Part shown: piece after piece, positions 7,143 to 49,563 of the stretch
Position numbering within the stretch: the first letter of the stretch is position 1
Layout of the letters: every line of letters starts with the position of its first letter
From: a virus
Virus record (IMG/VR): IMGVR_UViG_3300005466_000026
Span: 1 to 64,000 of that record
Length of the DNA: 64,000 nucleotides
Reading direction: 5' to 3' (one strand)
Program-made: the position numbers and the translations under genes
The notes under the pieces: model-generated
The model's input: the letters and a program-made list of their open reading frames with translations, nothing else
What the model was told of the DNA's origin: nothing
The model's database searches: none

Positions 7143-9203
7143 CTATTCTGCGTACTTCGTGTTCTGGATGAACGCGACAGCCGTCGACCGACGCTTGCCC
7201 CAGTTAATCCAGCGCTCGGCGCGAACGCCGGTCATGTTCATCTGCCAGAGGCTGACCATGTTCGTAGACGCGGTCGGCGGAGAGTCAGGCGCCGAGTCCA
7301 TCTGGACGGAGGCCTGATTGCTCGCGTCGATCACGACCTGACCGTCGTCGGCCAGCATGATCTCGTTCGCCTTGAGGAAGATGATGAGACCGCCGTCTGC
7401 GGGCGATCCGCCGGTAGCCATGCCGAGGTTCTCCGAGGTGATCACCGGATAACCGAGCAGCGATCCGCCGTCGGAGGTGATGTTCGGGAACACGGACTGA
7501 CCGAGAGCGTTCTGCATGATCGACAGAGACAGAGCCTGCGTCTGCGTCATGAGGAACACGCCACCGGCTGTCGAGAGGTTGTTCTGGAAGTAGTTCGCGA
7601 ACAACGTCTTGATGTCTGCGCGAAACGCAGACGCGGTGGTGCCGGACGGCGTGACTGGCGTGACGCCGTTCGTGATCGAGGCCGGCGACACGTTGGTGAC
7701 TGCCGCCACCGCAGGGTCGACGAACTGACGATCGAGGAACTGCGCCATCGCGTCGACGAGGTCTGCGCGTACGACTTCCTCGGCCGCAGGGTTCGAGAAG
7801 CGAACGAGCTCGTCCGTGAGGACGACGATGCCCGCTGCCTTCGCCCAGCGAAGAGTGACCGTACCGAAGGTCATCTGGCTTACCGGCTTCGGTGCGTTCT
7901 CGCCGACCCAGTTGACCGTCGTGCCGCTCAGGGCGGACGGCATCTGGATGTTGAAGGGAACGCGACGAAGGCCGGGAATCCGACCGAGGATGGTCGCCGG
8001 ACGGAGCAGACCGATGAACTCCGACGCCATGATGTTGTACGCGACGAGCGGAGCTGCCCATGTCGCGTCTGTCGTGGTGCCAGCGCCGATGGCCGCCTTC
8101 TGCGCCATGAGAGGATCGTTGCGGAGAGTACCCGCAACGTCCATCTCGATGGAGTTGAAGATCTCGGGCATCTGGTCCTTGAACTGCTTCGCCATGTTGA
8201 GCGCCTTGGCGGTGTCGCCCTTGGACGCCGCGAGACACATGACGTAGCGAATGAACGCCGTACCCTTCGGCACGTTGGCGTTCGGACCAACCACGCGAGC
8301 GCGAACCGGCTCGATCGTGGTGCGCTGCTCGCGCGTCTCGACCGTTCGGTTGTTGTTCTGCGCGGGCTCGACGCGCTGAGCGTCTGCGAGCTGCTGCTTC
8401 TCGAGGCTGTTCAGCCGGATCAGATGCTTGTCGATCTGAGCAACCTCCTGCTCGAGAGTGTCGTACTCCTCGGACTCAGCCTGATTGAGGGTCGTGCCCG
8501 CCTCAGCCGCTGCATCCATGATGGCCTTCATCCGGGCAGCTTTCGCGGCGCGAGTTGCCTCGAACCCGGTGATCTGTTCTCTGATAGTCTTCACCCTAGT
8601 CTCCTGTGAGGCGATCATCTCGACAACCGAGACGGTCTTCGCCGTGGTTCCCGTAGCGCCGGGACGTTGGGGTCTCAGCGACTTCGGATCAGCGTTCTGG
8701 CCTATCGCGGCCTGCTGCGCTCCGACGTCAAGAGACTTGATCATCTGGATCGTGGCCTCGGCGTTAGCCGGGATCGTCACCAGACTGAGCTCGTAGACTT
8801 CTGTCTTCTCGAACCGAATGCCGTCGCTCTCCTTCATGAAGGCGTACTCGAGAGCACGGAAGCCGATGGACACAGACGCGACCAGACCCGTCTTCACGGA
8901 GTCCCACGCCTCCATCAGTCGGTCCTTGAGGCCCGGCGACTGAACCTTCTCGGGGTCCACCAGCTGAGCCTCGAAGTCGATGCCGTCCTCTGTCGGCCTG
9001 TCGAACTTGACCATGCCGACTGGCTTGTCGTGCTTGTGCTGCCAGAGCAGCGGCATCGGGTTCTTGAACTTGACACCGAGAGGCTCCACTATGTCGCCGA
9101 CCCTGTCTGTGGTCGGAGTCGTGGCGGTGCCGCGGATGATCCGCTTCTCCTCGTCGATCGACTTGATGACGAGAACGCTGTATGCTCTGTTCTGAGTTGT
9201 CAT
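7143..9203 (-). CDS. Fused HK97 prohead protease and major capsid protein
   Basis: N-terminal protease motifs ('LLWQH', 'SIGF', 'ELSLVTIPANAEA'), coiled-coil delta domain, capsid motifs ('WVGE...KP', 'LLGYPV', 'RAERW'). Confidence 0.95.
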   Translation of the reverse strand: MTTQNRAYSVLVIKSIDEEKRIIRGTATTPTTDRVGDIVEPLGVKFKNPMPLLWQHKHDKPVGMVKFDRPTEDGIDFEAQLVDPEKVQSPGLKDRLMEAWDSVKTGLVASVSIGFRALEYAFMKESDGIRFEKTEVYELSLVTIPANAEATIQMIKSLDVGAQQAAIGQNADPKSLRPQRPGATGTTAKTVSVVEMIASQETRVKTIREQITGFEATRAAKAARMKAIMDAAAEAGTTLNQAESEEYDTLEQEVAQIDKHLIRLNSLEKQQLADAQRVEPAQNNNRTVETREQRTTIEPVRARVVGPNANVPKGTAFIRYVMCLAASKGDTAKALNMAKQFKDQMPEIFNSIEMDVAGTLRNDPLMAQKAAIGAGTTTDATWAAPLVAYNIMASEFIGLLRPATILGRIPGLRRVPFNIQMPSALSGTTVNWVGENAPKPVSQMTFGTVTLRWAKAAGIVVLTDELVRFSNPAAEEVVRADLVDAMAQFLDRQFVDPAVAAVTNVSPASITNGVTPVTPSGTTASAFRADIKTLFANYFQNNLSTAGGVFLMTQTQALSLSIMQNALGQSVFPNITSDGGSLLGYPVITSENLGMATGGSPADGGLIIFLKANEIMLADDGQVVIDASNQASVQMDSAPDSPPTASTNMVSLWQMNMTGVRAERWINWGKRRSTAVAFIQNTKYAE

Positions 9204-38619: not shown

Positions 38620-40623
38620 CTATTTTGGAAGGTCAGCCCACGTGCCGGTCGCGGTTCCCCACGTCCGGCCGTACTCGGCGTCCACCATCATGGGAACCTC
38701 GAGAGAAACTATCTCGCGCATGATCTGCGTTATCTCGTTCCCTGTCTTCTCACTGGCCTGACTGAAGCCGAGCTCGTCGTGCATCTGGATGAGCGGTACG
38801 TGGCCAGCATCGTAGCACGCTCGCATGGCCATCTTGGTCTGCCGCGCCGCGCTGCCCTGAATGAGACCATTCATGGCCTTTCGACACTCGGCCCGCCGCA
38901 GTCTCTTGCCGTACCACGGATGGTCCTTGTCCCTCACCCGCTCGCGAGCCTCCTCGATCCGGCAGTAGCCCATCTTGATCTGGCCGCCGCTGCCCCATCC
39001 TCTGCGCCGCTCGTCCTCTGAGAGCCAAGTCGGCTCCCACATGTCGAAGTGAATTCGGGCTCCGTCTATCAGCCGTATGAACCCGGTGCGACTGGCCTTC
39101 TCCTGACACAGAGTGTTCAGCTGCTTGACGAACGGCATCTGCTCGTCGTACTGCGTCATTATCTTCTCGGCCTCCTCCATGCTCTTGTTGATCATGGAGG
39201 CGAACTTCTTCACGCCAGCGCCGTACGACTTCGCGAAATTCGTGTCCTTCGCTGGCTTGCGCGGCAGACCAGTCATGTCGGCGACCATGCTGTGAAAGTC
39301 GGTGCGCGGATCTGTTCTGTAGCGAGTCGCGGCCTCCAGCGCCTTCTTCAGCTTGTTGCGAACCGCGAAGTGCACTATCAGCCGGTACTCCTGCTGAGAG
39401 TAGTCCGCCGACATCCACGCCTCGCCCTCCTCGGGCAGGAACAGCCCCCGGATGAGCGTCGCCAGCTCCTCGTTCCGATGCGGCATCTGCTGCAGCGGGG
39501 GGTCGGAGTAGCTGAAGCGATAAGTGCGAGTGCCGCCCTCCTCGGACTTGAACTGATTGATGGAGGCGTGAAGCCTGCCGAGATGGGCGTAGTCTATGAT
39601 GTACGACTGAACGAACTTGTGCGCGGCCTCGTGATACTCCTTCGCCTTGACCAGCATGGGAGGGAGCCAGTGCGGCGAGTCCTTCATCCACTTCTTCTCG
39701 AAGCTGCCGCGTCCAGTACCGTCGCGCGGGAACTTGATCTTCAGCTTGGTGAATACGTCCGTCATCCAGCCGTTGGATCGCAGGTCGTCGATGTCGACGC
39801 CGTGTCCCAGCTTGGAGCTGATGTCGCGGAAGGTCTCCCTAGACGTCTCGATGCAGTGTGCCTTCACCTGCTCGGCGGCCTCTAGATCTACGCGAATGCC
39901 GCGCCTGCGCATGGCGTGGACCACCGGCAGGAGATCCATCTCGAGCTGGTACGCGTCTACTGTCTTCTCCTTCTCCATCAGCGGTCGCAGCTTGTGCGCC
40001 AGCTGGAGCGTGCGAACCGCGTCGGTCTCCGCGTACTCTCCCACGAACTTGGCCGGGAGCCGCCACATGTCCGTCTTCGGATCGATGCCGTAGGACGCCG
40101 CTGCGTCTCTGAGAACTCGCTCCTCCTTGCCCGGTAGTCCTTGCCACTCGCAGAGCGCGTCGAGATTGAACTCGAAGCGGTTCTCGTCTATCATGTTGGC
40201 CATGCACGTCGTGTCGTCCACCTGGGATGGACACCCGACGCCGAGATCTACGTCGCCCCATCCCACGTCGAACGGCGCGTTCTGCATCACGAAGCGGACG
40301 CCAGCCCTCTGATGGTCCTTCTCCCATCTGGCGATCTGGTCGGGCTGGAAGCACTCGGTGTCCGGATGCCTGATCGGCGCGTAGAAGGACTCGAAGACCT
40401 CACCCTTCTTCCACGCTGCGCTGACGCCTATCACGTAGCCAGCCTTCATCGCCCATCCTGGACCGCGCTCGGCCGCGAGGCCGTCGTCCTTGCACTCGCG
40501 GTCGAAGCCTATCTCCTTGCACCTGCGGAGATCAGGCAGCTCAGTCGGCGGCTCCCAGTCGCTGGTCGGCGTGAACAGCGGGTCCTGAAAGCCGCCGACG
40601 TGATAGTTCTTGCGCTTCTTCAA
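38620..40623 (-). CDS. polA: Family A DNA polymerase with 3'-5' exonuclease domain
   Basis: Exo motifs 'FDRE', 'NAPFD', 'YAETD'; motif A 'ADYSQQEYR', B 'RKPAKDTNFAKSYG', C 'HDEL'; TTG start overlapping the upstream stop. Confidence 0.95.
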   Translation of the reverse strand: MKKRKNYHVGGFQDPLFTPTSDWEPPTELPDLRRCKEIGFDRECKDDGLAAERGPGWAMKAGYVIGVSAAWKKGEVFESFYAPIRHPDTECFQPDQIARWEKDHQRAGVRFVMQNAPFDVGWGDVDLGVGCPSQVDDTTCMANMIDENRFEFNLDALCEWQGLPGKEERVLRDAAASYGIDPKTDMWRLPAKFVGEYAETDAVRTLQLAHKLRPLMEKEKTVDAYQLEMDLLPVVHAMRRRGIRVDLEAAEQVKAHCIETSRETFRDISSKLGHGVDIDDLRSNGWMTDVFTKLKIKFPRDGTGRGSFEKKWMKDSPHWLPPMLVKAKEYHEAAHKFVQSYIIDYAHLGRLHASINQFKSEEGGTRTYRFSYSDPPLQQMPHRNEELATLIRGLFLPEEGEAWMSADYSQQEYRLIVHFAVRNKLKKALEAATRYRTDPRTDFHSMVADMTGLPRKPAKDTNFAKSYGAGVKKFASMINKSMEEAEKIMTQYDEQMPFVKQLNTLCQEKASRTGFIRLIDGARIHFDMWEPTWLSEDERRRGWGSGGQIKMGYCRIEEARERVRDKDHPWYGKRLRRAECRKAMNGLIQGSAARQTKMAMRACYDAGHVPLIQMHDELGFSQASEKTGNEITQIMREIVSLEVPMMVDAEYGRTWGTATGTWADLPK

Positions 40624-41582
40624 GTCTCCGCCTCCCACGCGCGGTCTATCAGGTGATGCTTCTCGTCGCTCGGGTTCCACTCGTAGAGTGTAGCGACCCA
40701 CTCCTGCATCTTCTCCCACTCGTGACGATTGGCTTCTTCCTGAAACTTCGGGAAGTACTCTCTGGCGCCGAGAGGACACAGAGCGATCTTGACGACGTAC
40801 AAGTTACCCTGCGTCGGCTTGAAGTCGTACAGACTGCGGATGAGCGCGGGCGGCTCTCCGAACTTCGGATCGCACACGCTGGCCTCTAGAACCCACAGAG
40901 GACCGACTCTTCTGAACCACGTCTCGATGTGCATCTGCGTGAATACGTTGTTGATCACGTCGTCGGTCATCACCCACGGAGCCAGCGACTCGTGCTGCCC
41001 GCCGTCCTCAGGAGTACCGATGACTCTCTTGTCGTCGAACGGTGGTTTAGAGTACGCGTCCACCGACTCTACGCTGGTGTCGCTGTTCCAGACCTCGCTC
41101 ATCCTGCGAGCCTCCTCCGCAGTCAGCCGAGGCGCGACGATGATCTTCTTCTCTCGCTCCGGCAGCACCGCGCCGCGCGAGATCATCTCGGCCTCGATCA
41201 GCGTGGCGTAGCGCCGCAGGTCCCGGAGGCAGGCTAGAACGCTGCCGTCCTTGCCGCTCGGGTCGTCGTGTATCTTCTCGAAGACGTCCTCCTCGCTCAG
41301 CTTCTGCACCATCCACTCGGCCAGCTCGTGAGACAGCGTGTACTCCTTGTCCGGGTCCGTAGCTACGTCCTGAAGGTCCTCTCGGCTGAAGCTCTCCGGC
41401 CACGGCACGGAGGCCATCATGTTCAGCAGTCGGTCCATGTTCCTGCGAAACATGAACCACGCGCTTCGTCCACCGGCCATCTTCCAGCTTCCCTGATAGG
41501 TGGCCTCCTTCTCCCTGAGCAGCATGACGTCGCTGTCGGCGACGCGCTGCAGATGCTCCAGATGCTTCATGTCGTGGCTCAT
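40620..41582 (-). CDS. Nucleotide-modification-associated domain protein (Nmad1-like N-terminus)
   Basis: 'LREKEATYQGSWK..GG...FM..RNMDRL' and 'DLRRYATLIEAEM' resemble this family in hmU phages; adjacent to HD and TS-like genes. Confidence 0.55.
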   Translation of the reverse strand: MSHDMKHLEHLQRVADSDVMLLREKEATYQGSWKMAGGRSAWFMFRRNMDRLLNMMASVPWPESFSREDLQDVATDPDKEYTLSHELAEWMVQKLSEEDVFEKIHDDPSGKDGSVLACLRDLRRYATLIEAEMISRGAVLPEREKKIIVAPRLTAEEARRMSEVWNSDTSVESVDAYSKPPFDDKRVIGTPEDGGQHESLAPWVMTDDVINNVFTQMHIETWFRRVGPLWVLEASVCDPKFGEPPALIRSLYDFKPTQGNLYVVKIALCPLGAREYFPKFQEEANRHEWEKMQEWVATLYEWNPSDEKHHLIDRAWEAET

Positions 41583-42085
41583 GATATCTTCACTCCCTTC
41601 ATCCACTCGTCGACCTTGACGTACTGATACAGCTCGTCCGCCATCTTGAGTGCGATCTCTCTGGTGTCGCGCATGGGTATTGCGGCGTACTGATTACCCA
41701 TCATGAACTCGTGAAAGCAGAACTCGTACATCTCCAGCAGGTCGCAGATCTTGAACCGCTTCCACTCGTCCTCTCGCATCTGCGGCAGCTCGATCTGCTG
41801 ATGACCCAGACCCAGTCTCTCGGCCTCGTTGACAGCCGCGCCGTAGCCCTCGACTCGGTGCTTGCCGCCGAACGGAACGTCGCCGGCGAACTGCTCTCCC
41901 ATGTCGTGATGCAGGCAGTAGTAGAGAACCTCCGCGCGAGGAATACCGAACACCTCGCAGTAGATCTGCGCGACGCGACCCTGATGCTCGATCACGTTCG
42001 GCTTTCGCAGAGTCGGCCAAGTGTGCCATCGCGCCACCTGACCGGCTAGATGCCTTGATCTGTAGACTTGATCTCTAGTAACCAT
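41579..42085 (-). CDS. HD-domain 5'-deoxynucleotidase (YfbR-like)
   Basis: 'RW...EH', 'HHDMGE...GDVP...K', 'KICD.LE'. Confidence 0.85.
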   Translation of the reverse strand: MVTRDQVYRSRHLAGQVARWHTWPTLRKPNVIEHQGRVAQIYCEVFGIPRAEVLYYCLHHDMGEQFAGDVPFGGKHRVEGYGAAVNEAERLGLGHQQIELPQMREDEWKRFKICDLLEMYEFCFHEFMMGNQYAAIPMRDTREIALKMADELYQYVKVDEWMKGVKIS

Positions 42086-43237
42086 TCACATCCTCCTCGT
42101 CATCCACTCGGTGCACGCCACGCGCCAGTCCTCTGACTGGATCTCGTTGGCTGCAGCCACCGCTCTTATCTTCTGGCCGTCTCTCCACAGACGGTGCGAC
42201 CGAACAACCGGCTGAGCAACCTCGCAGAACCAGTCGTTCTCGCAATGTCTCAGAGGTACGTCGCTCTCTGTTCGGTAGCACTCGTCGTGCCACGACATGA
42301 ACTCGATGACGTCCTCGTCGGCCTTCTCTCCGACCGTGAATACCGGGCGCGTCTTCAGCCGAAGAGAGAAGTACCTGTCGTCGTGCAGGGCGCCGACTAT
42401 GCTGCTCTCCTCCTTGGCCATTCGCTTGGTCATAACGCCGAGCATCGTCTCGTACATGTGAAAGTTGTTCGAGAGAACGTACAGATCACCCATCGCCACG
42501 CCGACGCGAGCAGCCAGATACTCCTGCAGAAAGCTGAAGTGCACCGAGTTCGCGCCGTAGAGTCCCCAGACGATGTCGTTACTGCGGCAGCACACCGTCA
42601 TGTCCAGAACTCTGTTCCCCTTAGATATGACCACGCCGTCCGGCCAGTGATCTGGACCGTCTCCGCGCACTCTGAGATAGATGTGCGTGTTGCACGGTCT
42701 GTCCTTCCACTCGCCGGTGAGGTCCAGAGCGCCGACCTCCTGCTCGCCGACGTTGCCGTTACCCAGACTAACGGGCAGCGTGACGCTGGAGCAGTCCCAC
42801 ATCTGGATGACGCACTGACGCGTCCCCGGGTCCTTGATCAGCCGATCCACGACCGCTCCCAGCTGATCAAGTCCGAAGCGGAAGCGCCATCGGTGTCCGT
42901 ACGCTCCGTGGATCTGACCCCCGGCCTCCCAGTTCGCGCTCCCGCTGGCGCTCTCGGCGAACCGCTGGCCGAAGTCCGTCACGTAGTGGTTCAGCGTCTC
43001 GGCGTCGTCCCTGCCAGCCAGCATCCAGATGGCCTCCACGACGTGAAAGAATGGATTGGCATCTCTCACCTTGCTGAAGACCACGCGCTCCCACGGTCTC
43101 TTGAGGCGCGTGACGACGGGACCGGGGGCGACTAGGCAGGGACCCGCCCGAGTCTTCTCGAGCAGGCCGGAGTTGATTAGCAGGTGCACTCCCTTCGGGA
43201 GTGCCGCCGCTGAGTTCGTGGTGTCGATGACGTGCAT
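42086..43237 (-). CDS. Thymidylate synthase-fold enzyme, probable dUMP hydroxymethylase
   Basis: 'RDANPFFH..E..WMLAG', 'GAYGHRWR', catalytic 'PCN', 'RSNDIVWGLYGAN' (Asn at the specificity site means dUMP), 'NNFHMY'. Confidence 0.85.
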   Translation of the reverse strand: MHVIDTTNSAAALPKGVHLLINSGLLEKTRAGPCLVAPGPVVTRLKRPWERVVFSKVRDANPFFHVVEAIWMLAGRDDAETLNHYVTDFGQRFAESASGSANWEAGGQIHGAYGHRWRFRFGLDQLGAVVDRLIKDPGTRQCVIQMWDCSSVTLPVSLGNGNVGEQEVGALDLTGEWKDRPCNTHIYLRVRGDGPDHWPDGVVISKGNRVLDMTVCCRSNDIVWGLYGANSVHFSFLQEYLAARVGVAMGDLYVLSNNFHMYETMLGVMTKRMAKEESSIVGALHDDRYFSLRLKTRPVFTVGEKADEDVIEFMSWHDECYRTESDVPLRHCENDWFCEVAQPVVRSHRLWRDGQKIRAVAAANEIQSEDWRVACTEWMTRRM

Positions 43238-43253: not shown

Positions 43254-43532
43254 TCAGAACGGTATCTCGTCGTCGTCCACCTCGGTGCGGCGTTTGCCGC
43301 CTCCGAAGGACGGCTTGTCGTCGCCGCTGCCGCTGCGCTCTGCGCGCTCCTTCGGCTCGAACAGCATGATAACTATCTTGTTCTCCTTCTTGGGGTCCGG
43401 GACGGGGACGCTGTCCAGGTAGATAGTGATCTGTCCCTTGTCGTTCTGGTGAGCCTGTCCTACTCGGTGCCACCAGACACCGTCCTCGTTGTACTTAGGT
43501 CTCGGAGTCATCGCGTCGTATCTCTTCGGCAT
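43254..43532 (-). CDS. Small OB-fold-like protein with an SSB-type acidic tail
   Basis: 'W.RVG.A...KGQITIYLD..P'; C-terminus DDDEIPF. Confidence 0.6.
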   Translation of the reverse strand: MPKRYDAMTPRPKYNEDGVWWHRVGQAHQNDKGQITIYLDSVPVPDPKKENKIVIMLFEPKERAERSGSGDDKPSFGGGKRRTEVDDDEIPF

Positions 43533-43974
43533 GTGGCTGTCCCTTGAGATAGAGTTCTTCCAGCAGTATCGCCGCCAGACCCGCGCACTCTGGATCGTTG
43601 TACCAGCGGCACAATCCAGAGGGATGAGGTAGCTGCCGCCATGTGCATCCGTTCATCTGAACAGGGTGAATAAGTATCTTGGGGAGCTCCAGTGCACTGC
43701 GCACCTGCTCCCCGAACACGACAATGGTACGTCCGGCGTAGAGCGAAGGAAAACGCTCCGCCGCTGCCTTGGCCACCGGCCTGCTCCACGTTCTGGAGTT
43801 GATCAGGTTGAGCCGCTCGAAGCCGTCCATGTATCCCTTTCGCGTGACCTGCGGCTGGCGCGTCTGCAGAAGCCTCCAGAGACGGTAGCCGCTGCTCCCG
43901 GACGGGAACGGAGCGAGCGCGTACCTGGGATCCGCCGACAGCGGATTGTTCATTCCCAGCAGTACGGCCCTCAC
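43495..43974 (-). CDS. Uracil-DNA glycosylase superfamily protein
   Basis: 'LLGMNNP', 'SG.RL', 'IVVFG', 'LPHPSG...WYN'; GTG start overlapping the upstream stop. Confidence 0.65.
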   Translation of the reverse strand: MRAVLLGMNNPLSADPRYALAPFPSGSSGYRLWRLLQTRQPQVTRKGYMDGFERLNLINSRTWSRPVAKAAAERFPSLYAGRTIVVFGEQVRSALELPKILIHPVQMNGCTWRQLPHPSGLCRWYNDPECAGLAAILLEELYLKGQPHAEEIRRDDSET

Positions 43975-44519
43975 ACCAGATTGAGCCACCGAAACACCTT
44001 CGCGAACACCTGCTCGCGGGATCCTAAAAAGCATTCCACCTTCTCCTCTTGAAAGTCGTAGTAGTGTCTGCGACTCTTTCTGTGCAGCGCCTCGATAGTC
44101 TTCTCCTGGATCTTGTGACCGCGCTCACGAACGGCCTTGACGCAGTCCTCCAGAGGCTCGTCTATCAGGGCGACCGCTATCGGTAGTCCGGCGTCCCGAA
44201 GATCGAGCAGGTTCTGTGGCTTGTCGGTGAAGTTCTTTCCCTCGTAGAGCACGTTGCATCCGAGCTCCAGAGCGTGGATCCTCATCAGTTCGTACGCCAG
44301 CGGTAGACTAGGCAGCGTGTCCAGTCCGCCGTTCGCTATCTCGTAGTGTCCGGGAACGTACAGATGCTTCTCGTTGATGTTGTTGTGAGTCAGGATGTAT
44401 CCGGCAGGCTTCTGTCTGCCGGGATACTCCAGCTTGCGGCTCACCGGATAGAAGGACATGATCCTGCGGACCAGATGCGACTTGCCCGCGCCGTTCGTTC
44501 CCAGGAGACTGATTATCAT
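43971..44519 (-). CDS. P-loop nucleotide kinase of the 5-hmdU DNA kinase type
   Basis: Walker A 'GTNGAGKS', 'G.Y....GGLD', 'VLYEG', 'C...V.ER'. Confidence 0.7.
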   Translation of the reverse strand: MIISLLGTNGAGKSHLVRRIMSFYPVSRKLEYPGRQKPAGYILTHNNINEKHLYVPGHYEIANGGLDTLPSLPLAYELMRIHALELGCNVLYEGKNFTDKPQNLLDLRDAGLPIAVALIDEPLEDCVKAVRERGHKIQEKTIEALHRKSRRHYYDFQEEKVECFLGSREQVFAKVFRWLNLV

Positions 44520-44893
44520 GAGTGCTGATCCAGCTGACTGATCTCGTGCATGTTCGCCAGCGCGAACTCTCGACGGTCCTTCTTGTCCATGTCGTAGCAC
44601 ATCAGCAGCCACTGAGGAGTCTCGTACCACTCGCTGGTTCCCCACCGCACGCTGATGGGATTAACTGTTCGCCAGCTGAACGAGCCGCGATAGTTGACGT
44701 AGCTGAAGCGAAGAGTCTGCGTCGGCCGAGCCTCGTCCTGATGCATCTCCAGTATGCGAGCCAGCGCGGACAGATGATTGGTCGCCGAGGTGATCACCTC
44801 TCGAGCTCCCGTGTAGGACCATGCCGGATGCTCGCGACATAGCCTCTCGATGCTGGCGGCTAGATCTCTCAGGCTATGCTTCTGCGCTGGCAT
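44516..44893 (-). CDS. Stand-alone WYL-domain protein
   Basis: 'FSYVNYRG...RTVNP......W..PQWLL.CYD.DK..RREFAL'. Confidence 0.75.
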   Translation of the reverse strand: MPAQKHSLRDLAASIERLCREHPAWSYTGAREVITSATNHLSALARILEMHQDEARPTQTLRFSYVNYRGSFSWRTVNPISVRWGTSEWYETPQWLLMCYDMDKKDRREFALANMHEISQLDQHS

Positions 44894-45953
44894 CGTCGCC
44901 TCCTCTGGGTCCCTGATAGGCTGGCACCGGCTCGCGATCCTTCCACGGCAGACGCACCACCTTGTCGCGCTGACCATGCGAGAGAGCCTCCTGGATGTCT
45001 GCCGCCGTCTGCGCGTCGGGCTTGTGCAGCTTGCCCTGACCCATCAGGTCCGGAAGCAGGCCGACGCGATAGCTGCGATGATTGCACCCTCGGCACGGCG
45101 TGAAGTCGCGCTCGCCGCGTATCAGCTTCTCCCTGGCGGCTCCCATCGCGTCGCCCTGCCACAGCTCACCGATGTTGGTCTCGTTCGTGTTGCCCACGAA
45201 GTACGGACTGTCCCACGTGTTGCAGCACAGAGGAACGTTGCCGTCCCAGTGAATGGCGATCTGCCTGAACGGATGATGACACCGCTTGCCTGCCATACTG
45301 TCGTCGGGCGCGAAGGCGAGGCCAGCGTAGTTGAACACCTTGCCGTGATTGCCAATCTTCTTGTCGGCCGCCTGCGACGCGAGATCCCGTATCTTCACCA
45401 GCGTCCTCGTGCCCGGTCTTCGGCGCTTGTGCGGGTTCCCGCGAATGTCCCGCGGATAGTCGTAGTAGGTGAAGCCAAGAGGATGCTTGACGCCCGATCG
45501 CAGCTTGCCCTTCTCCTCGATGGCCGCGATGACCTTCTCCACGAACTTCACGTTCTCGTAGTCGTCCAGCCCGAGGACGCTGACGCCAGCGTCGAACAGC
45601 GCTGTCACGTTCACCACCGGACCCGGCTTCCTGAGTAGTCCCCCGGCGTTGGTCAGCATCGTGATGTGCGCCTTCGGCAGACACTCGCGAGTGGCCGCCA
45701 TCATCCCCACGTAGTCCGGATGCATGGTGGGCTCACCGCGCATGGCGAAGCCGACGCGACAGTTCCAGCCGAGAGCTCTCACGTCCGTGAGCGCCTTGAC
45801 CAGCGTCTCCTTCTTCATGAACTCGTATCCCTTGCCCTGCTTCTCCTGTATCGCGGAGACCGCGCAGAAAGGACAGTTTAGATTACAGCCGCGCGTCAGC
45901 TCCAGCGTGACGTTGAACGGGGGTTCCTGAGTACGGTATCTTCGGCGCGTCAT
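44874..45953 (-). CDS. Radical SAM enzyme with SPASM/twitch domain
   Basis: CxxxCxxC 'CNLNCPFC', 'GEP', 'TNA'; 'C..PF...I.WDG.V.LCC...GN...W', 'C..C'. Confidence 0.9.
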   Translation of the reverse strand: MTRRRYRTQEPPFNVTLELTRGCNLNCPFCAVSAIQEKQGKGYEFMKKETLVKALTDVRALGWNCRVGFAMRGEPTMHPDYVGMMAATRECLPKAHITMLTNAGGLLRKPGPVVNVTALFDAGVSVLGLDDYENVKFVEKVIAAIEEKGKLRSGVKHPLGFTYYDYPRDIRGNPHKRRRPGTRTLVKIRDLASQAADKKIGNHGKVFNYAGLAFAPDDSMAGKRCHHPFRQIAIHWDGNVPLCCNTWDSPYFVGNTNETNIGELWQGDAMGAAREKLIRGERDFTPCRGCNHRSYRVGLLPDLMGQGKLHKPDAQTAADIQEALSHGQRDKVVRLPWKDREPVPAYQGPRGGDDASAEA

Positions 45954-46900
45954 AGGTTCTTCTCCAGTCTGTTGTAGGCCTCTAGGACCTTGTCCTTCAG
46001 ATCTCGCTTCTCGCGAGCAGCCTTCAGCCACCATCGGTCCTGCTGCTCCTTCAGTATCTCTGCCCGTCTGGACATCCTGCGCTGAACGGAGGCCGCGTTG
46101 CTGACCAGGAAGTCTCCTGGGTCATAGCCTGCCTTGCGCAGCGTGTAGCCCGCCTCCTCCTGGAACACCATAGGAAGTCCGCCGCTGAGCATCTCGTAGA
46201 AGCGGTTGGGAGGCGAGTGGAAGTTGCTGTGCGACTTGGCGTCCTCGAGATAGAGGCCGAGGCCGTGCCGTCCCAGCTCGGAGTGCAGATCCTCTATCTT
46301 CTTGACGTGTCGCACGTTGGGTCCGTTGTACTTCTGCTCGAACCGACTTGTCGGCGAGGAGATGGTTATGGGCAGCGACGGACTGTTGAAGAACTTGTCG
46401 AACGCCTTGGTTCGGCCGGCTCGGAAGCTTCCGTAGTAGAAGAGGTCTCCGGCGTCCTTCTTATTCAGAGGCGGCTTCTCCTCCTCGAACCCCAGAGCGT
46501 TCCAGTTTATCAGCGAGCTGAGAGTCGTGAGCTTGCTCTCCCTCTCGCAGGTCGTCCAGAACTCCAGGTGCGACTTACCCGCCTTGCGTCGGTCGACGAA
46601 CGCCTTGCGGAACGGCGACGTAGCGTCGCCGTCGTTGATGGGCGGAACTATGGTGTAGTCCTGCTGTATCCAGACGATGCGCCTGACGCCGCGTATGGCG
46701 TGCGACAGCGGCTCTAGATGCTTGCAGAAGGCGTATGCCCCGTTCACTATGAAGAGGACGTCCGCCGTCTTGTAGAGCTCAATGGTCTCGTCGTCCACCA
46801 GCGGCAGGTCCAGCGTCTTGCTGAGAAAGAACGCCGCCTTGACCGACGCGACCATCGACTTCTCGCTGCACGCTATGAAGCTGAATATGGCTGCCTTCAC
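45950..46900 (-). CDS. T4 beta-glucosyltransferase-like DNA glycosyltransferase (GT-B)
   Basis: Colinear similarity with T4 BGT as recalled: MKAAI~MKIAI, DVLFIVN~DRLIVVN, DLFYYGSFRAGR~DVIYGGSFRSGQR, NRFYEMLSG.LPMVFQEE~LRVWETMASDAVMLIDEE, FLVSN~FYVNN. Confidence 0.75.
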   Translation of the reverse strand: MKAAIFSFIACSEKSMVASVKAAFFLSKTLDLPLVDDETIELYKTADVLFIVNGAYAFCKHLEPLSHAIRGVRRIVWIQQDYTIVPPINDGDATSPFRKAFVDRRKAGKSHLEFWTTCERESKLTTLSSLINWNALGFEEEKPPLNKKDAGDLFYYGSFRAGRTKAFDKFFNSPSLPITISSPTSRFEQKYNGPNVRHVKKIEDLHSELGRHGLGLYLEDAKSHSNFHSPPNRFYEMLSGGLPMVFQEEAGYTLRKAGYDPGDFLVSNAASVQRRMSRRAEILKEQQDRWWLKAAREKRDLKDKVLEAYNRLEKNL

Positions 46901-47106
46901 GTCTCACCTCTCTGCTTCTGGAAGTCCCTGACTTGGTTAATTATCCTCTGCTTCGCGCCCGAAGCCAAGTTCTGAATGGCTCTCTGCTGCCAGCACGTGG
47001 GATCTCGCGGCGGCAGATGCGAGACGTAGTCTGCGTAGCTGAGAACGTCTCCGTAGTCGGAGTCCGTGTCCCGAGCGATCTTGAGAAGCGGATAGCTGGT
47101 GCTCAT
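46897..47106 (-). CDS. Hypothetical protein
   Basis: 69 aa, coupled on both sides by 4-nt overlaps. Confidence 0.55.
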   Translation of the reverse strand: MSTSYPLLKIARDTDSDYGDVLSYADYVSHLPPRDPTCWQQRAIQNLASGAKQRIINQVRDFQKQRGET

Positions 47107-47717
47107 CTTCGGTCCATTCTCAGGACGTGCCAGCCTGCCTCGAAGATCGGCACGTCACCCGTGATCTTGAAGCCGCCGCGACTGATCATGGCCAGGAACT
47201 TCTTCCTGTCGTGCTCTGCCGTGTTGCTCTTCAGCACGTACTTGTCGCCGAAGCGTATCGTGCAGATGATGGACCTCTTCGCGAGCTTCATGAAGCCCCT
47301 CATGGCCGCCTGCATGGAGGGCTCGTCGATGAGGTCCAGGAACCGCACCGCCACGATCACGTCGGAGGGTGGCAAGCCCTCCAGCTTTCTGGCGTCGCCG
47401 ACCTGCAGGACGTAGGACGGCGGCACCTTCTTGTTCTTCAGCTTCCCCTTAGCTATGGCGAGCATCTGCTCCGAGGAGTCTACGCCCGTAACGGTGGCCA
47501 CGCTCAGCTGATGATACAGATAGAAGAACCTGCCGGTTCCCACCGGGCAATCGATCACGGTCTGCGGCCTCAGCTCGGTGAGCATGTCCTCGACCGCCGC
47601 GTTCTCCTCGCCCCATCGTATCTGCTTCTTGCGCTTGGCCTCGTAGCCGCTCGCCATCTTACCGCGATACTTTCTCGCGGTCCTGTCTCCCAGATTGAAT
47701 GCCGCAGATGGTCTCAT
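47103..47717 (-). CDS. Class I SAM-dependent methyltransferase (small-molecule type)
   Basis: 'VIDCPVGTGRF', 'GVDSSEQML', 'GDA', 'DVIVAVRFL'; no DPPY/NPPY or m5C 'PC' catalytic motif. Confidence 0.85.
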   Translation of the reverse strand: MRPSAAFNLGDRTARKYRGKMASGYEAKRKKQIRWGEENAAVEDMLTELRPQTVIDCPVGTGRFFYLYHQLSVATVTGVDSSEQMLAIAKGKLKNKKVPPSYVLQVGDARKLEGLPPSDVIVAVRFLDLIDEPSMQAAMRGFMKLAKRSIICTIRFGDKYVLKSNTAEHDRKKFLAMISRGGFKITGDVPIFEAGWHVLRMDRR

Positions 47718-47912
47718 CTATCTCCTCCCCTTGCTGTCGAAGACTACTCTTCCGGTTGATCTCTCGAAGCACGTGACCGCCGCGCTGCTGTTTCTAGCCA
47801 TCGCGCCCACGAACTCCTTGCAGGCTTCCTTGCTGTCGAACTTGACCTGCTTCGGCTCCTCGCATCCGAGGAAGCTGCAGAACGTTATGAGTACGAAGAA
47901 TGGACTTTCCAT
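47718..47912 (-). CDS. Small Cys-containing hypothetical protein
   Basis: Hydrophobic N-terminus, 'F.S.EAC' motif. Confidence 0.45.
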   Translation of the reverse strand: MESPFFVLITFCSFLGCEEPKQVKFDSKEACKEFVGAMARNSSAAVTCFERSTGRVVFDSKGRR

Positions 47913-48691
47913 GTCACTTCTCCTAATTGCTGCTTCATCTTCATGCCTTTATTCCACGGTTCTCGTCCTTTCATTGCGGCACTCATTTTTGCACGAGACT
48001 CAAGAGTGTGCTTCTTACCTTTTCTCTTCGACGGTTTTCCTTTCTGTGCTGCGCTCATCTTAGCTCGAGACTCAGCTGTATGTTTCCGACCTGCTATCCA
48101 GGGAATTTGACCCTTATGAACATCACTCATCTTTTTTCGGTGCTCAGGATTTTCCCACGCCTTCTTGATTAAATCTTTCAATATGATTGAGCCTCTCTCA
48201 CGATAATCAGGATCTTTCCATCTTTCTTTTGACTCTCTTCTCATTTTATTCGCTTGGCGCTCTCGATACTCTGGATCTTTCCACTGCTCTTTTAATTGCC
48301 TTGTCATAGAAGCACTCCTACGCTCACGAAATTCAGAGGACTCCCATAGCTTCACGACTGCTAGTCTCATTGCTTCACGTGAAGCTTCTCTGGAGATAGC
48401 GTATTGCCAGCTAGAGCATGGTCTGCCTTGAGTCATTCTACTGAGTGCACTCACCATCTGATGATGTGCTCTGCCATCAAGAATAAATTTAGTCAAGAGC
48501 CAGTGTGCCAGAAAATGTTCTCGATAGGTCAGTGAGACCAAGTTCTCTGAGCTGTTATACCAGCTCGGATCTCCGCCGAAACTTCTAGGGTTTCGGTGAT
48601 GTCTCTCGTAACGTACTCCTGGTTCGCGCTCGCGGCTCGCGGCGCGATCCATGATCTGCGTGTACCAGAGACGATACTTCTCAGTGCTCAC
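47885..48691 (-). mobile_element. Free-standing HNH homing endonuclease with NUMOD3 repeats
   Basis: 'YERHH..PRSFGG...ENLVSLT.REHFLAHWLL'; repeated 'GRKHTAESRAKMSAA', 'PWNKG'; markedly AT-rich. Confidence 0.85.
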
Positions 48692-49563
48692 GCGAACACT
48701 CCTCTTGGTCTGCCCTCGCCGTTCCTGACTCTCTCGTACTTGTCGAACTCGCAGAGCGTGTGCTCGACGTCTCGCATCTCCCACTTGGGCCACTGCCTCG
48801 GCCAGTTGCCCGGACTGCAACTGGCCGCGAGGATCAGCTGCATCTCCTCCAGCATCTTGGGCACCCTGACGCTCTTATCCTTCTTGTTCCTGCCGTGTAT
48901 CCGGTTCAGTCCGCGCCTCGCCCCCGGTCCCACGTTGCACCAGCTCATGATGTCGTTCGCGTCGCAGAGAAGGTTGGTGTGCCGCAGGTCCGTGACTATC
49001 TCGTACGAGTGAAATGTGCCGAGCCACGGCTGCATCTTGAACCAGAGCCAAGCCGTCTGCAGAGACATCTTCTCCTTAATCATCTGCTTGGCAGCGTCCC
49101 TCCATCCGCTCTCCTCTCTGAAGTTCTTCAGGATCTCCAGGATCCCGTCCAGCTTGGTGAAGCCGGGGGGAGAGGTTATGATGTACGCTCCGGTGACGTA
49201 GGGGCCGTCACCGCAGATCGCCTTGACGTCCTTCTTCATGCGTCGCAGGTCTCCGGTCTGCAGGAACACCGCGAAGGCGTTGTTCTTGTCGAAGTCCAGG
49301 TGATTGAAGATGGCCTCTCCCGTGCTGATCCTGTTGAACATGCGGAACACGACCGTGGCCAGTAGCACGTCCGGCGAGTCTCTCATCTCCTCCCTCACGT
49401 TGCGTCGGAACCAGTCAGTGGTCTTGTCCAGCTCCCGGAAGACGTTCGTGAACCTGTACTTCTGCAGGATCGGGTCCCTCGTCAGGGACGACTTCCCCTC
49501 CAGACGGTTCAGGTACACCTGATGTCGCTGCCTCGCGTAGTTGAAGAAGGACTGCATCGTCAT
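48688..49563 (-). CDS. aGPT-Pplase1 / 5-hmdU DNA kinase helical-domain protein
   Basis: 'DPILQKYRFTNVFRELDKTT', 'FRMFN', 'TGAYI', 'G.F..YE..TDL', 'GPGARRGL', 'VEH.LCEFDKY.R'. Confidence 0.85.
   Translation of the reverse strand: MTMQSFFNYARQRHQVYLNRLEGKSSLTRDPILQKYRFTNVFRELDKTTDWFRRNVREEMRDSPDVLLATVVFRMFNRISTGEAIFNHLDFDKNNAFAVFLQTGDLRRMKKDVKAICGDGPYVTGAYIITSPPGFTKLDGILEILKNFREESGWRDAAKQMIKEKMSLQTAWLWFKMQPWLGTFHSYEIVTDLRHTNLLCDANDIMSWCNVGPGARRGLNRIHGRNKKDKSVRVPKMLEEMQLILAASCSPGNWPRQWPKWEMRDVEHTLCEFDKYERVRNGEGRPRGVFA

Follow-up and report, generated by a model that had tools for sequence, protein, structure and literature searches.

In the thymidine-hypermodification scheme as drawn so far, a kinase is combined with the transfer of an amino acid or a polyamine. 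The pathways of phages M6, PaMx11, ViI, and PhiW-14 (Lee et al. 2018, 2021) are among the closest described counterparts of the locus analyzed here; in PaMx11, gp49 is the kinase 5-HMUDK (Table 1, PMC8989533), gp50 belongs to PF18723, and gp46 belongs to PF18724, and the word "glycosyltransferase" does not occur in the main text of PMC8989533.

A second point of comparison is offered by kinetoplastids, in which JBP1/2 and JGT generate base J and the hmU that receives the sugar is produced by a thymine dioxygenase. Base J proper is beta-D-glucosyl-hmU. According to passages of Pyle et al. (bioRxiv 10.1101/2023.12.21.572611), JGT is GT-A-like, and GT-B-like glycosyltransferases of phages are often found near thymidylate synthase (TS) homologues. 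Our literature searches returned base J for kinetoplastids only, with no phage report, and neither a phage glycosyl-hmU nor a phage hmU glycosyltransferase was found in them, bearing in mind that the supplements of Pyle et al. and of Lee et al. 2021 may list the family described below.

Glycosylated thymine derivatives are nonetheless described in phages SP-15, YerA41, and Carin-5, where, in the parts of PMC12686479 that deal with them, both phosphate and sugars are placed on thymine, and where the characterized phages with SP-15-like polymerases carry their sugars on a C5 linker (excerpts of PMC13697223 and PMC12686479). As for the beta-glucosyltransferase (BGT) of phage T4, an excerpt of PMC4111573 reports that it glucosylates 5hmU in oligonucleotides, and in double-stranded DNA only when 5hmU is mispaired with G. 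Here, we describe a viral gene cluster in which a BGT-like enzyme is embedded in a thymidine-hypermodification core, and we consider it probable, on the basis of sequence comparisons and structure models, that this enzyme glycosylates 5-hmdU in DNA, the sugar being tailored afterwards by a methyltransferase and a radical SAM enzyme that resembles BtrN.

A thymidine-hypermodification core carrying a glycosyltransferase gene

The window, namely the whole 64,000-nucleotide stretch that was analyzed (positions 1 to 64,000 of IMG/VR record IMGVR_UViG_3300005466_000026), is part of an 85.8-kb phage genome that is 99% complete. All genes of the cluster are read from the same strand, their stops and starts overlapping, as follows:

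38620..40779 (-), family A DNA polymerase (PolA), downstream of the cluster; PF00476, E 6.4e-42
41579..42085 (-), HD-domain (YfbR-like) nucleotide hydrolase; PF12917, E 2.9e-6; homologue of PaMx11 gp52, 4.4e-8
42086..43237 (-), TS-fold enzyme with a dUMP hydroxymethylase signature; PF00303, E 2.8e-15; phrog_5131, E 1.1e-81
43495..44034 (-), phrog_12275 protein, E 1.2e-23; found in 12 sources including the window
43971..44519 (-), homologue of P-loop 5-hmdU DNA kinase, by alignment and by phmmer against PaMx11 gp49, 1.1e-22
44874..45953 (-), radical SAM enzyme with a SPASM/twitch domain; PF04055 and PF13186; start coupled to the glycosyltransferase stop
45950..46900 (-), BGT-like GT-B glycosyltransferase (GT), 316 aa, GTG start
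46897..47106 (-), 69-aa ORF, translationally coupled to the GT start
47103..47717 (-), class I SAM-dependent methyltransferase; PF13649, E 1.7e-10
48688..49563 (-), PF18723 HMUDK_hel (formerly aGPT-Pplase1) helical, DNA-glycosylase-like protein; E 3.2e-46, full length

The GT ORF lies exactly at the position given in the preliminary description of this DNA. Its GTG start is confirmed by the family consensus, whose first residues are the same Met-Lys; this start shares a GTGA with the stop codon of the 69-aa ORF upstream, and at the other end of the gene an ATGA joins the GT stop to the start of the radical SAM gene. The 69-aa ORF itself is kept, among 33 GT loci searched by tblastn, only in the near-identical contigs L004 and L005. 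The reading frame of the kinase is open to 44645, and its conserved core begins at the Met at 44519.

The likeness to known thymidine-hypermodification clusters lies in the homologues of PaMx11 gp49 (kinase), gp50 (PF18723), gp51 (TS-like), and gp52 (HD) found here upstream of PolA, the TS-fold enzyme matching gp51 at 2.9e-59 and the PF18723 protein being the ortholog of gp50 (7.1e-70). The difference lies in what surrounds this core: the group-transfer enzyme of PF18724 and the PLP, FAD, and acetyltransferase tailoring genes of those pathways are absent, and a BGT-like GT, a SPASM/twitch radical SAM enzyme, and a methyltransferase are found in their stead. Indeed, the PF18724 (aGPT-Pplase2) amino acid:DNA transferase was detected in none of 35 genomes, consisting of the 85.8-kb phage genome, coliphage IME392, and 33 related records (of which 9 are at least 90% complete), in a search where the positive control PaMx11 gp46 scored E 3.3e-29. 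The protein at 48688..49563 was considered as a candidate for this transferase and rejected, as it is the other paralogue, PF18723, and a gp50 ortholog. The cluster is thus a thymidine-hypermodification core without an amino acid:DNA transferase, and the GT holds the place that this transferase occupies in the known clusters.

The predicted source of hmU is the TS-fold enzyme. Its motif RSNDIVWGLYGAN, present in ORF 42086..43237, contains two Asn, the last of which aligns with N177 of Escherichia coli ThyA, the residue that selects dUMP, and the first with C168. By the same alignment, the enzyme carries Asp at L143, Cys at C146, Asn at H147, Asp at D169, and Asn at N177. At L143, C146, D169, and N177 it agrees with annotated or characterized dUMP hydroxymethylase homologues from SPO1-like phages, PhiW-14, ViI-like phages, and M6-like phages; the roles of an acidic residue at L143, of Asn at N177, and of Asp at D169 are set out in passages of PMC13326640. 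The dUMP-specific hydroxymethylase that had been proposed from the Asn alone is therefore well in line with the alignment, and the residues point away from a dTMP-forming enzyme, the outcome that had been named as contrary to the proposal. On these residues, the enzyme would be the source of 5-hmdUMP. It is also the only TS-family gene of the 85.8-kb genome, in which no C5-methylase was found, such that the earlier remark that no hmC source is visible extends from the window to the whole genome.

The companion genes allow more or less specific predictions. The HD gene adjoins the TS-like gene in 18 loci, and its product is predicted to remodel the nucleotide pool through removal of dTTP/dUTP; PolA lies at most 6 kb from the GT in 16 sources. 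The best solved relative of the radical SAM enzyme is BtrN, which matches it along the C-terminal cluster domain at E 9.6e-10, and a presumptive role in sugar tailoring would suit it, as a tailoring role would suit the methyltransferase. Homologues of the former follow the GT in 14 of 33 loci and homologues of the latter are present in 10 of the 33, both counts coming from tblastn, as an iterated radical SAM profile also caught kinase ORFs. As for the PF18723 protein, its model has a pLDDT of 91.7, and a fold search with it returned only weak matches to HhH-glycosylases and to gp46 (E 0.2-0.8). Proteins of this family share an invariant Cys-Glu...Lys motif, and since PaMx11 gp46 uses a cysteine in catalysis, as stated in part of PMC11472151, the helical protein may be an enzyme.

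Kinship of the glycosyltransferase to T4 BGT

By sequence, the GT belongs to a family without names and without Pfam assignment, whose members, almost all of them from phage contigs, fall into 285 clusters at a 90% identity threshold and reduce to 623 representatives at 50%. Profile searches with the window GT gave no Pfam family at E <= 0.01 and no PHROGs match; NCBIfam held no match for the GT, the kinase, or the PF18723 helical protein; and phmmer against PDB sequences yielded chance-level matches only (best E 0.12). At the nucleotide level, megablast of the cluster against phage records returned a single 73-bp stretch. With tblastn at E <= 0.01, the window GT reached only 7 phage records (IME392, EP_H11, and an S13-like group), which places the family in the cultured coliphages vB_EcoM_IME392 and EP_H11, and no homologue was found at this threshold in SP-15, YerA41, or Carin-5.

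The AF2 model of the GT (pLDDT 94.3, pTM 0.90) shows a two-domain GT-B fold, for which Foldseek ranked T4 BGT structures first to fifth in the PDB (E 1.8e-10 to 1.9e-9) and VIA-align again placed T4 BGT on top (Z 21.6/20.7/20.3/20.0, rmsd 3.7-3.9, 291-299 residues), ahead of the runner-up family SenB (Z 17.3) and of generic GT-B matches (Z 15-17). Independently, the ESM Atlas returned PF09198 clusters among the nearest matches (score 0.96, TM 0.79). PF09198 is the T4 BGT family, corresponding to CAZy family GT63. The BGT homologue put forward in the preliminary description thus finds support in the predicted fold, and the LPS or cell-wall glycosyltransferases that had been named as the competing outcome did not come first.

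Kinship at the level of sequence is weak. When the GT was compared by BLASTP with T4 BGT alone (sequence from NC_000866), 168 residues of the C-terminal domains could be aligned, 24% of them identical (E 0.006 for this one comparison); the structural alignments show 16-18% identity, and hhalign of the family profile against the single T4 BGT sequence was poor (probability 1.8, E 0.027). PF09198 gave no match at E <= 1 in 5 other GT members, in a search where the T4 BGT control scored 9.4e-98. Within these limits, the GSFR.G loop and the R..E pair noted in the preliminary description were recovered by alignment: BLASTP pairs YYGSFRAGR of the window with YGGSFRSGQR of T4 and RFYEMLS with RVWETMAS, and residue equivalences were drawn from a MAFFT alignment in which T4 BGT was placed with 36 members of the family. 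In this alignment, T4 S189 corresponds to window S158, R191 to R160 (36/36 members), R195 to R163 (35/36), R269 to R233 (36/36), and E272 to E236 (36/36), the T4 residues of this set being those that bind UDP. T4 D100, the catalytic base according to the PDB entry and to the titles of its references, corresponds to window D81, with Asp in 35 of 36 members and Glu in one.

Overall, the GT resembles T4 BGT in a GT-B fold that is nearest to it among solved structures, in the start motif, in length (316 vs. 351 aa), in the retention of the catalytic Asp and of the Ser/Arg/Arg/Arg/Glu donor-site residues, and in its proximity to a TS-fold hydroxymethylase, as T4 b-gt adjoins gene 42 (NC_000866). 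It differs from T4 BGT in having no PF09198 match, in its partner hydroxymethylase, which is of dUMP type where that of T4 is of dCMP type, and in being embedded in a thymidine-hypermodification core (PF18723, 5-hmdU kinase, radical SAM enzyme, and methyltransferase). It should also be stressed that the fold alone gives no activity on hmU:A pairs, because T4 BGT needs a G mispair to act on double-stranded 5hmU (excerpt of PMC4111573).

Gene context across related loci and the acceptor

The context of the GT was surveyed in 33 related viral GT loci from IMG/VR. A TS-like gene lies beside the GT in 27 of the 33, the other 6 ending at a contig edge on the expected side, and Asn occupies the N177 position in 26 of the 27 TS-like genes. 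The PF18723 protein is present in 26 of the 33 loci and is a conserved companion of the GT. Moreover, one member of the family, P0214 (634 aa, a MAG singleton), fuses a GT (residues 14-318) to a PF18723 domain (residues 347-599), the latter scoring 35 bits where the cut-off is 25. Its entry is MBD3194319.1, encoded on a 78.6-kb contig; word-based searches found no further fusion of this kind, and searches of viral, metagenome, and genome contigs did not bring up the DNA of P0214.

These observations bear on whether the GT acts on DNA at all. As most GT-B enzymes use non-DNA acceptors and generic GT-B structures reach Z 15-17 against the model, a host surface polymer, a protein, or a small molecule might be envisaged as the target, and the genome of Cronobacter phage S13, which carries a distant GT homologue, has no hydroxymethylase. 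However, the nearest fold is by a clear margin that of a DNA enzyme, T4 BGT, 27 of the 33 loci have the gene in one operon with genes for nucleotide metabolism and DNA modification, and one member is fused to a helical domain directed at DNA bases, so that we regard a non-DNA target as very improbable. The S13 locus was also considered as an hmC context and discarded as uninformative, since its genome holds a canonical TS only, with no homologue of gp42 or BGT; remote GT members may therefore use another acceptor.

Glycosylation of 5-hydroxymethylcytosine, as in T4, would fit the fold kinship with T4 BGT, and one locus, L033, does show a T4-like hmC set, with a TS of dCMP-hydroxymethylase type (Asp at 177), a MazG-like protein, and a P-loop kinase, and without a PF18723 protein. 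For the window enzyme this acceptor is scarcely credible, given that the single TS-family gene of its genome has Asn at N177 and that no C5-methylase is encoded; the Tet_JBP (PF12851) dioxygenase likewise gave no match in the 85.8-kb genome, in a search that matched no control genome either and thus had no positive control. What L033 does bring out is that the hydroxymethyl group is the common denominator of the GT contexts.

The role of the kinase is the more delicate question. The preliminary description had named hmU or phospho-hmU in DNA as the acceptor; the TS-fold signature, the single TS gene, and the hypermodification core support it, with phospho-hmU still standing as the alternative to plain hmU. 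A P-loop kinase gene is found in 23 of the 33 loci, adjacent to or overlapping the GT in many of them, PfkB/ThiD-like kinases occur in 4 further clusters, and IME392 carries an AAA_28 P-loop protein; since a kinase thus accompanies the GT in most loci, phosphate is suggested to be a component of the pathway. On this basis, the kinase could act first and the GT could then place its sugar on the phosphate of 5-phosphomethyl-dU, giving a sugar-1-phosphodiester on thymine, comparable with the phosphate-bearing sugar adducts of phages of the SP-15 type, in keeping with the thymine phosphate and sugars that part of PMC12686479 ascribes to SP-15, YerA41, and Carin-5. Two 100%-complete genomes speak against this order of events, those of L029 and L035, which encode the GT, PF18723, and the dUMP hydroxymethylase, and in which no 5-HMUDK profile match and no PfkB kinase was found, with profiles that could miss a divergent kinase. 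So do the general-base Asp, near-invariant (35/36) and superfluous for an anionic phosphate acceptor, and the hmC-context member L033, which fits a plain hydroxyl acceptor. A sugar on phosphate is therefore unlikely in our view, if worth keeping in mind. In the phylogeny, a quick version with all 37 rows retained, the kinase-less loci seem to branch deeply, which is no more than a hint, as T4 BGT, S13, and IME392 sit on very long branches. The 5-hmdU DNA kinase of the window may then serve a second modification elsewhere or add phosphate to the same adduct.

It could also be argued that the GT acts not on 5-hmdU but on the hydroxyl of a linker or other group already installed on thymine, possibly by the PF18723 protein, whose Cys-Glu...Lys motif, read next to the gp46 cysteine (part of PMC11472151), would allow for an enzyme. 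IME392 and EP_H11 do share SP-15-like DNA polymerases with the phages whose sugars, per the excerpts cited above, sit on a C5 linker with phosphate. We find this quite unlikely, as PF18724 is present in 0 of the 35 genomes, the minimal clusters of L025 and L028, with GT, PF18723, TS-like, and HD genes only, contain no recognizable linker biosynthesis genes, and the L033 context lacks PF18723. In comparison with SP-15, YerA41, and Carin-5, the locus would share glycosylated thymine as a product, and its GT family the polymerase type in two carriers, and would differ in the absence of the phosphate-bearing C5 linker described, in part of PMC12686479, for their sugars.

Proposed pathway and implications

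Direct glycosylation of 5-hmdU in DNA can be laid out as follows. The TS-fold enzyme, judging from its residues, would convert dUMP to 5-hmdUMP, the HD hydrolase would trim competing nucleotides, and the phage PolA would incorporate 5-hmdU from 5-hmdUTP into DNA. After replication, the GT, pictured as an inverting DNA glycosyltransferase with a GT-B fold that descends from the T4 BGT lineage and has exchanged 5-hydroxymethylcytosine for 5-hydroxymethyluracil as its acceptor, would flip out 5-hmdU and bind a UDP-sugar through its Ser/Arg/Arg/Arg/Glu site. With Asp81 as the general base, a hexose would be transferred to the 5-CH2OH group, yielding a base J-like glycosyloxymethyl-uracil. The fold, the conserved catalytic residues, the gene context, and the one natural fusion all argue for this step, and the chemistry is feasible in that T4 BGT accepts 5hmU in oligonucleotides (excerpt of PMC4111573). 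As a looser suggestion, the sugar might then be altered by the BtrN-like radical SAM enzyme, whose gene is translationally coupled to that of the GT, and by the methyltransferase.

Of the possible base J put forward in the preliminary description, it is the class of product that is predicted here, namely 5-hmU in DNA with a sugar attached to its hydroxymethyl group. Base J proper is just one candidate within this class, because the radical SAM enzyme and the methyltransferase probably alter the sugar. The predicted route also differs from that of kinetoplastids in that hmU would come from a pre-replicative TS-fold enzyme rather than from a thymine dioxygenase, in that the window enzyme is GT-B where JGT is GT-A-like (passages of Pyle et al., bioRxiv 10.1101/2023.12.21.572611), and in that the sugar of the phage product is probably further modified. 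A more specific proposal, which we advance only tentatively, is that the GT and the PF18723 protein form a two-part (once fused) machine that recognizes 5-hmdU in duplex DNA and glycosylates it without prior phosphorylation. On this view, an adjacent PIG-L deacetylase gene in IME392 suggests an amino sugar, and the product would there be a cationic glycosyl-thymine.

If the proposed glycosylation were genuine, a GT adapted to hmU:A pairs would offer a useful reagent to tag and map 5hmU, in contrast to T4 BGT, which in double-stranded DNA acts on 5hmU opposite G only (excerpt of PMC4111573). It would also represent a direct sugar-on-hmU modification of DNA in a virus, not yet reported for viruses in the literature found, and would extend the thymidine-hypermodification scheme by a glycosyl branch. 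It would account for an unannotated family of about 600 representative proteins, as well as for the predicted T-modification of coliphages IME392 and EP_H11. Should the GT and PF18723 form a machine of the kind outlined above, thymidine hypermodification would gain a third branch, based on sugars, in hundreds of uncultured phages as well as in IME392 and EP_H11; hmU:A pairs would have a natural labelling enzyme, and base J-like DNA would exist outside eukaryotes.

The glycosyltransferase and its kinship with T4 beta-glucosyltransferase

The BGT-like GT-B glycosyltransferase (GT) is encoded by the following gene, and its protein had no match in Pfam, PHROGs or NCBIfam:

45950-46900, minus strand: BGT-like GT, ORF of 316 aa with a GTG start

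This start is supported by the family consensus, which opens with the same Met-Lys that the preliminary description had pointed out. Its start codon runs into the stop of a 69-aa ORF and its own stop into the ATG of the gene that follows, so the GT is translationally coupled to both neighbours within a minus-strand gene run. None of the 285 clusters (90% identity) that match it at E <= 1e-3 bears a name beyond "hypothetical", and when 1.84 billion representatives were searched with the family profile, 623 matched at E <= 1e-3, 538 of them at <= 1e-10 and 298 at <= 1e-30. One member, P0226 (784 aa), has a C-terminal extension of ~450 residues with no Pfam match.

The resemblance to T4 beta-glucosyltransferase (T4 BGT), at first claimed from motifs, is borne out by structure: in an AlphaFold2 model (input alignment of 51 sequences, pLDDT 94.3, pTM 0.90), T4 BGT is the nearest solved fold. 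Indeed, five T4 BGT entries take Foldseek ranks 1-5 in the PDB (E 1.8e-10 to 1.9e-9, TM 0.64-0.68), followed by streptococcal Gtf3, and VIA-align gives T4 BGT Z scores of 21.6, 20.7, 20.3 and 20.0 (rmsd 3.7-3.9 over 291-299 residues) versus 17.3 for SenB and 16.4 for T4 alpha-glucosyltransferase. By an independent method, the ESM Atlas, clusters bearing PF09198 are among the nearest to the GT (features 0.96, structure TM 0.79), and in BLASTP against T4 BGT (from NC_000866) the C-terminal domains align (E 0.006). In a MAFFT alignment of 36 GT members with T4 BGT, window residues D81, S158, R160, R163, R233 and E236, all invariant or nearly so, match T4 D100, S189, R191, R195, R269 and E272. The last five of these T4 residues bind the donor. 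Titles of structure entries and references name D100 as catalytic base. Since a Pfam search (control run alongside) gave no PF09198 match to the GT, and hhalign of the family profile against the T4 BGT sequence was weak, we place the GT in a family of its own within the BGT lineage, outside PF09198.

The TS-fold enzyme and the modification cluster

The cluster around the GT contains homologues of four genes of phage PaMx11 (gp49, gp50, gp51 and gp52; phmmer), for which Table 1 of PMC8989533 gives the assignments:

41579-42085, minus strand: HD protein, homologue of gp52 (E 4.4e-8)
42086-43237, minus strand: thymidylate-synthase-fold (TS-like) enzyme, homologue of gp51 (E 2.9e-59), matching PF00303 and phrog_5131
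43971-44645, minus strand: homologue of the 5-hmdU DNA kinase gp49 (E 1.1e-22)
48688-49563, minus strand: PF18723 helical protein, homologue of gp50 (E 7.1e-70)

We aligned the TS-like enzyme with E. coli ThyA, T4 gp42 and the TS-like proteins of SPO1-like, PhiW-14, ViI-like, M6-like, Ab18 and IME392 phages. It has Asp, Cys, Asn, Asp and Asn at ThyA positions L143, C146, H147, D169 and N177, a five-position pattern identical to that of dUMP hydroxymethylase homologues; the Asp of T4 gp42 sits one column off N177, an alignment slip that is no contradiction. Passages of PMC13326640 state that N177 sets dUMP versus dCMP preference in TS-fold enzymes, that hydroxymethylation goes with an acidic residue at L143, and that D169N marks 5-hydroxy-dCMP synthases. 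The dUMP-selecting Asn reported earlier for this neighbour is thus confirmed, and so is the lack of a visible hmC source: the 85,774-base IMG/VR record, rated 99% complete, holds this single TS-family gene and yielded no C5-cytosine methylase. Tet_JBP had zero matches in the same record, in a search run without a positive control. The TS-like protein also has an insertion of ~18 residues after the catalytic Cys region, shared with loci L015, L016, L018 and L021 and absent from most homologues.

Counterparts of PaMx11 gp46 (the glycine:DNA transferase, PF18724), gp47 and gp48 were not found in the window cluster, where the known transferase and tailoring enzymes give way to three others: the BGT-like GT, a class I methyltransferase and a radical SAM enzyme; among solved structures the last is closest to BtrN (E 9.6e-10, aligned on the auxiliary-cluster domain). 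A PF18724 search that recovered PaMx11 gp46 at 3.3e-29 gave zero matches in the whole genome record of the window, none in phage IME392, and none in any of the 33 records that carry a GT homologue (nine of the 33 reach 90% completeness or more). Two further genes lie in this region:

47885-48820, minus strand: NUMOD3/HNH-type homing endonuclease, between the methyltransferase and PF18723 genes, interrupting an otherwise compact modification operon and present only in L004, L016 and the window
40620-41606, minus strand: 328-aa protein unmatched in Pfam and NCBIfam, flanked by the HD gene and PolA; with homologues <=6 kb from the GT in 23 sources, it is a conserved neighbourhood member

Gene context across the GT family

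An IMG/VR pattern scan with the family alignment gave 33 GT loci, whose ORFs were then profile-searched, counting the GT strand only. A TS-like gene is present in 27 of them (the other six all end at a contig edge on the expected side), a PF18723 protein in 26 and a P-loop kinase in 23; by tblastn, 14/33 have a radical SAM gene and 10/33 a methyltransferase. Asn occupies N177 in 26 of the 27 TS-like proteins. The sole exception, in L033, has Asp there with two further T4 gp42-like residues, next to a MazG-like protein, a P-loop kinase, a dCMP deaminase, ThyX and a C5-methylase-like protein, a gene set of hmC type. Transfer by the window GT to hmC, which lacks a visible source there, is the least probable reading of all. 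5-Hydroxymethylpyrimidine in DNA is the shared feature of all informative GT contexts, and a non-DNA target seems very improbable.

In six sources (IME392, L025, L028, L032, L034 and L036) the GT and PF18723 genes directly adjoin or overlap, with the TS-like gene next in line; four of the six sources continue into an HD gene. The two proteins are fused in P0214 (634 aa; MBD3194319.1), with the GT at residues 14-318 and PF18723 at 347-599 (35 bits versus a cut-off of 25; hhalign probability 93.6 against the PF18723 alignment). This protein, a singleton cluster, comes from a 78.6-kb contig in a MAG labelled Candidatus Lokiarchaeota; despite the archaeal label, the contig may be viral. Word-based searches turned up no other such fusion. 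This lone example lends support to a functional tie between GT and helical domain. A domain of this type is listed as the C-terminal part of SP10 kinase gp186 (Table 3, PMC5889632). Because PF18723 proteins share an invariant Cys-Glu...Lys motif near the C-terminus (window C271, E272, K275) and several invariant Asp residues, their sequences suggest catalysis and not just DNA binding; PaMx11 gp46, a related transferase, uses a cysteine.

Among 50,697 phage records, tblastn found a GT homologue in seven. Those of E. coli phages vB_EcoM_IME392 and EP_H11 align over 93-98% at 27% identity; the other five, from Cronobacter and Citrobacter T4-like phages, match in the C-terminal domain only. In S13, LPCS28 and Ci1 this distant homologue lies between uvsY and uvsW, and the S13 genome yielded a canonical thymidylate synthase only, with no gp42 homologue found. 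IME392 has the order methyltransferase, PIG-L family deacetylase, unknown protein, GT, PF18723, P-loop protein (AAA_28), TS-like, HD.

IME392, 7301-7912: PIG-L family (GlcNAc-PI de-N-acetylase-like) deacetylase, two genes upstream of the GT homologue
Cronobacter phage S13, 8740-9591: GT C-terminal-domain homologue, between uvsY and uvsW

The deacetylase near the GT suggests that the IME392 donor may be an N-acetylhexosamine, transferred and then deacetylated. In PMC13697223 and PMC12686479, IME392 and EP_H11 are predicted to carry modified thymine, from their aGPT-Pplase1 (PF18723) gene, and the lack of a detected kinase is noted; "glycosyltransferase" has zero occurrences in PMC13697223 and, in the passages covered of PMC12686479, serves solely for the Carin-5/YerA41 gene block.

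Kinases, acceptor and proposed pathway

A profile of 11 P-loop kinases found none in the whole records of IME392 and of L029, L034, L035 and L036 (the last four 94-100% complete). A PfkB family kinase (PF00294, E 7.5e-33), with the ThiD-type phosphomethylpyrimidine kinase family as secondary match, overlaps the GT start in L027 and lies 0.4-1.6 kb past the TS-like gene in three other loci:

L027, 9105-9995; L032, 13218-14123; L034, 14739-15623; L036, 8525-9397: PfkB-family kinase

Clusters bearing it lack the P-loop 5-hmdU kinase, except L027, which has both. The PfkB-family enzyme could act on hmU, as a non-orthologous kinase, or on a sugar. As kinases of three different kinds recur beside the GT, 5-phosphomethyl-dU as acceptor stays alive, if unlikely; however, profile searches of the L029 and L035 records, each 100% complete, recognised neither kinase type, so a recognisable kinase is apparently dispensable for the GT. 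Another group on thymine is a slightly slimmer prospect.

We consider it probable that the GT instead glycosylates 5-hmdU in DNA. It would transfer the sugar directly, by an inverting, Asp-based mechanism as in T4 BGT, and in the window phage the sugar would then be oxidised or epimerised, and methylated. The analysis itself establishes the fold, the conserved residues, the gene context, the lack of PF18724 and the residue signature of the TS-like enzyme; acceptor, donor, step order and all tailoring roles are what we infer.

Among the papers searched, none was found to describe a phage glycosyl-hmU or phage hmU glycosyltransferase. The general idea is already in the air, as the metagenome survey of Pyle et al. 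notes that phage GT-B-like glycosyltransferases are often near thymidylate synthase homologues (bioRxiv 10.1101/2023.12.21.572611), and its supplements may already include members of this family. Hydroxymethylpyrimidine DNA glycosyltransferases of the T4 BGT type are a known kind, from which the window GT differs by its proposed hmU target; the novelty would lie in an enzyme of this kind whose target has shifted to hmU and which has become part of the thymidine-hypermodification core.
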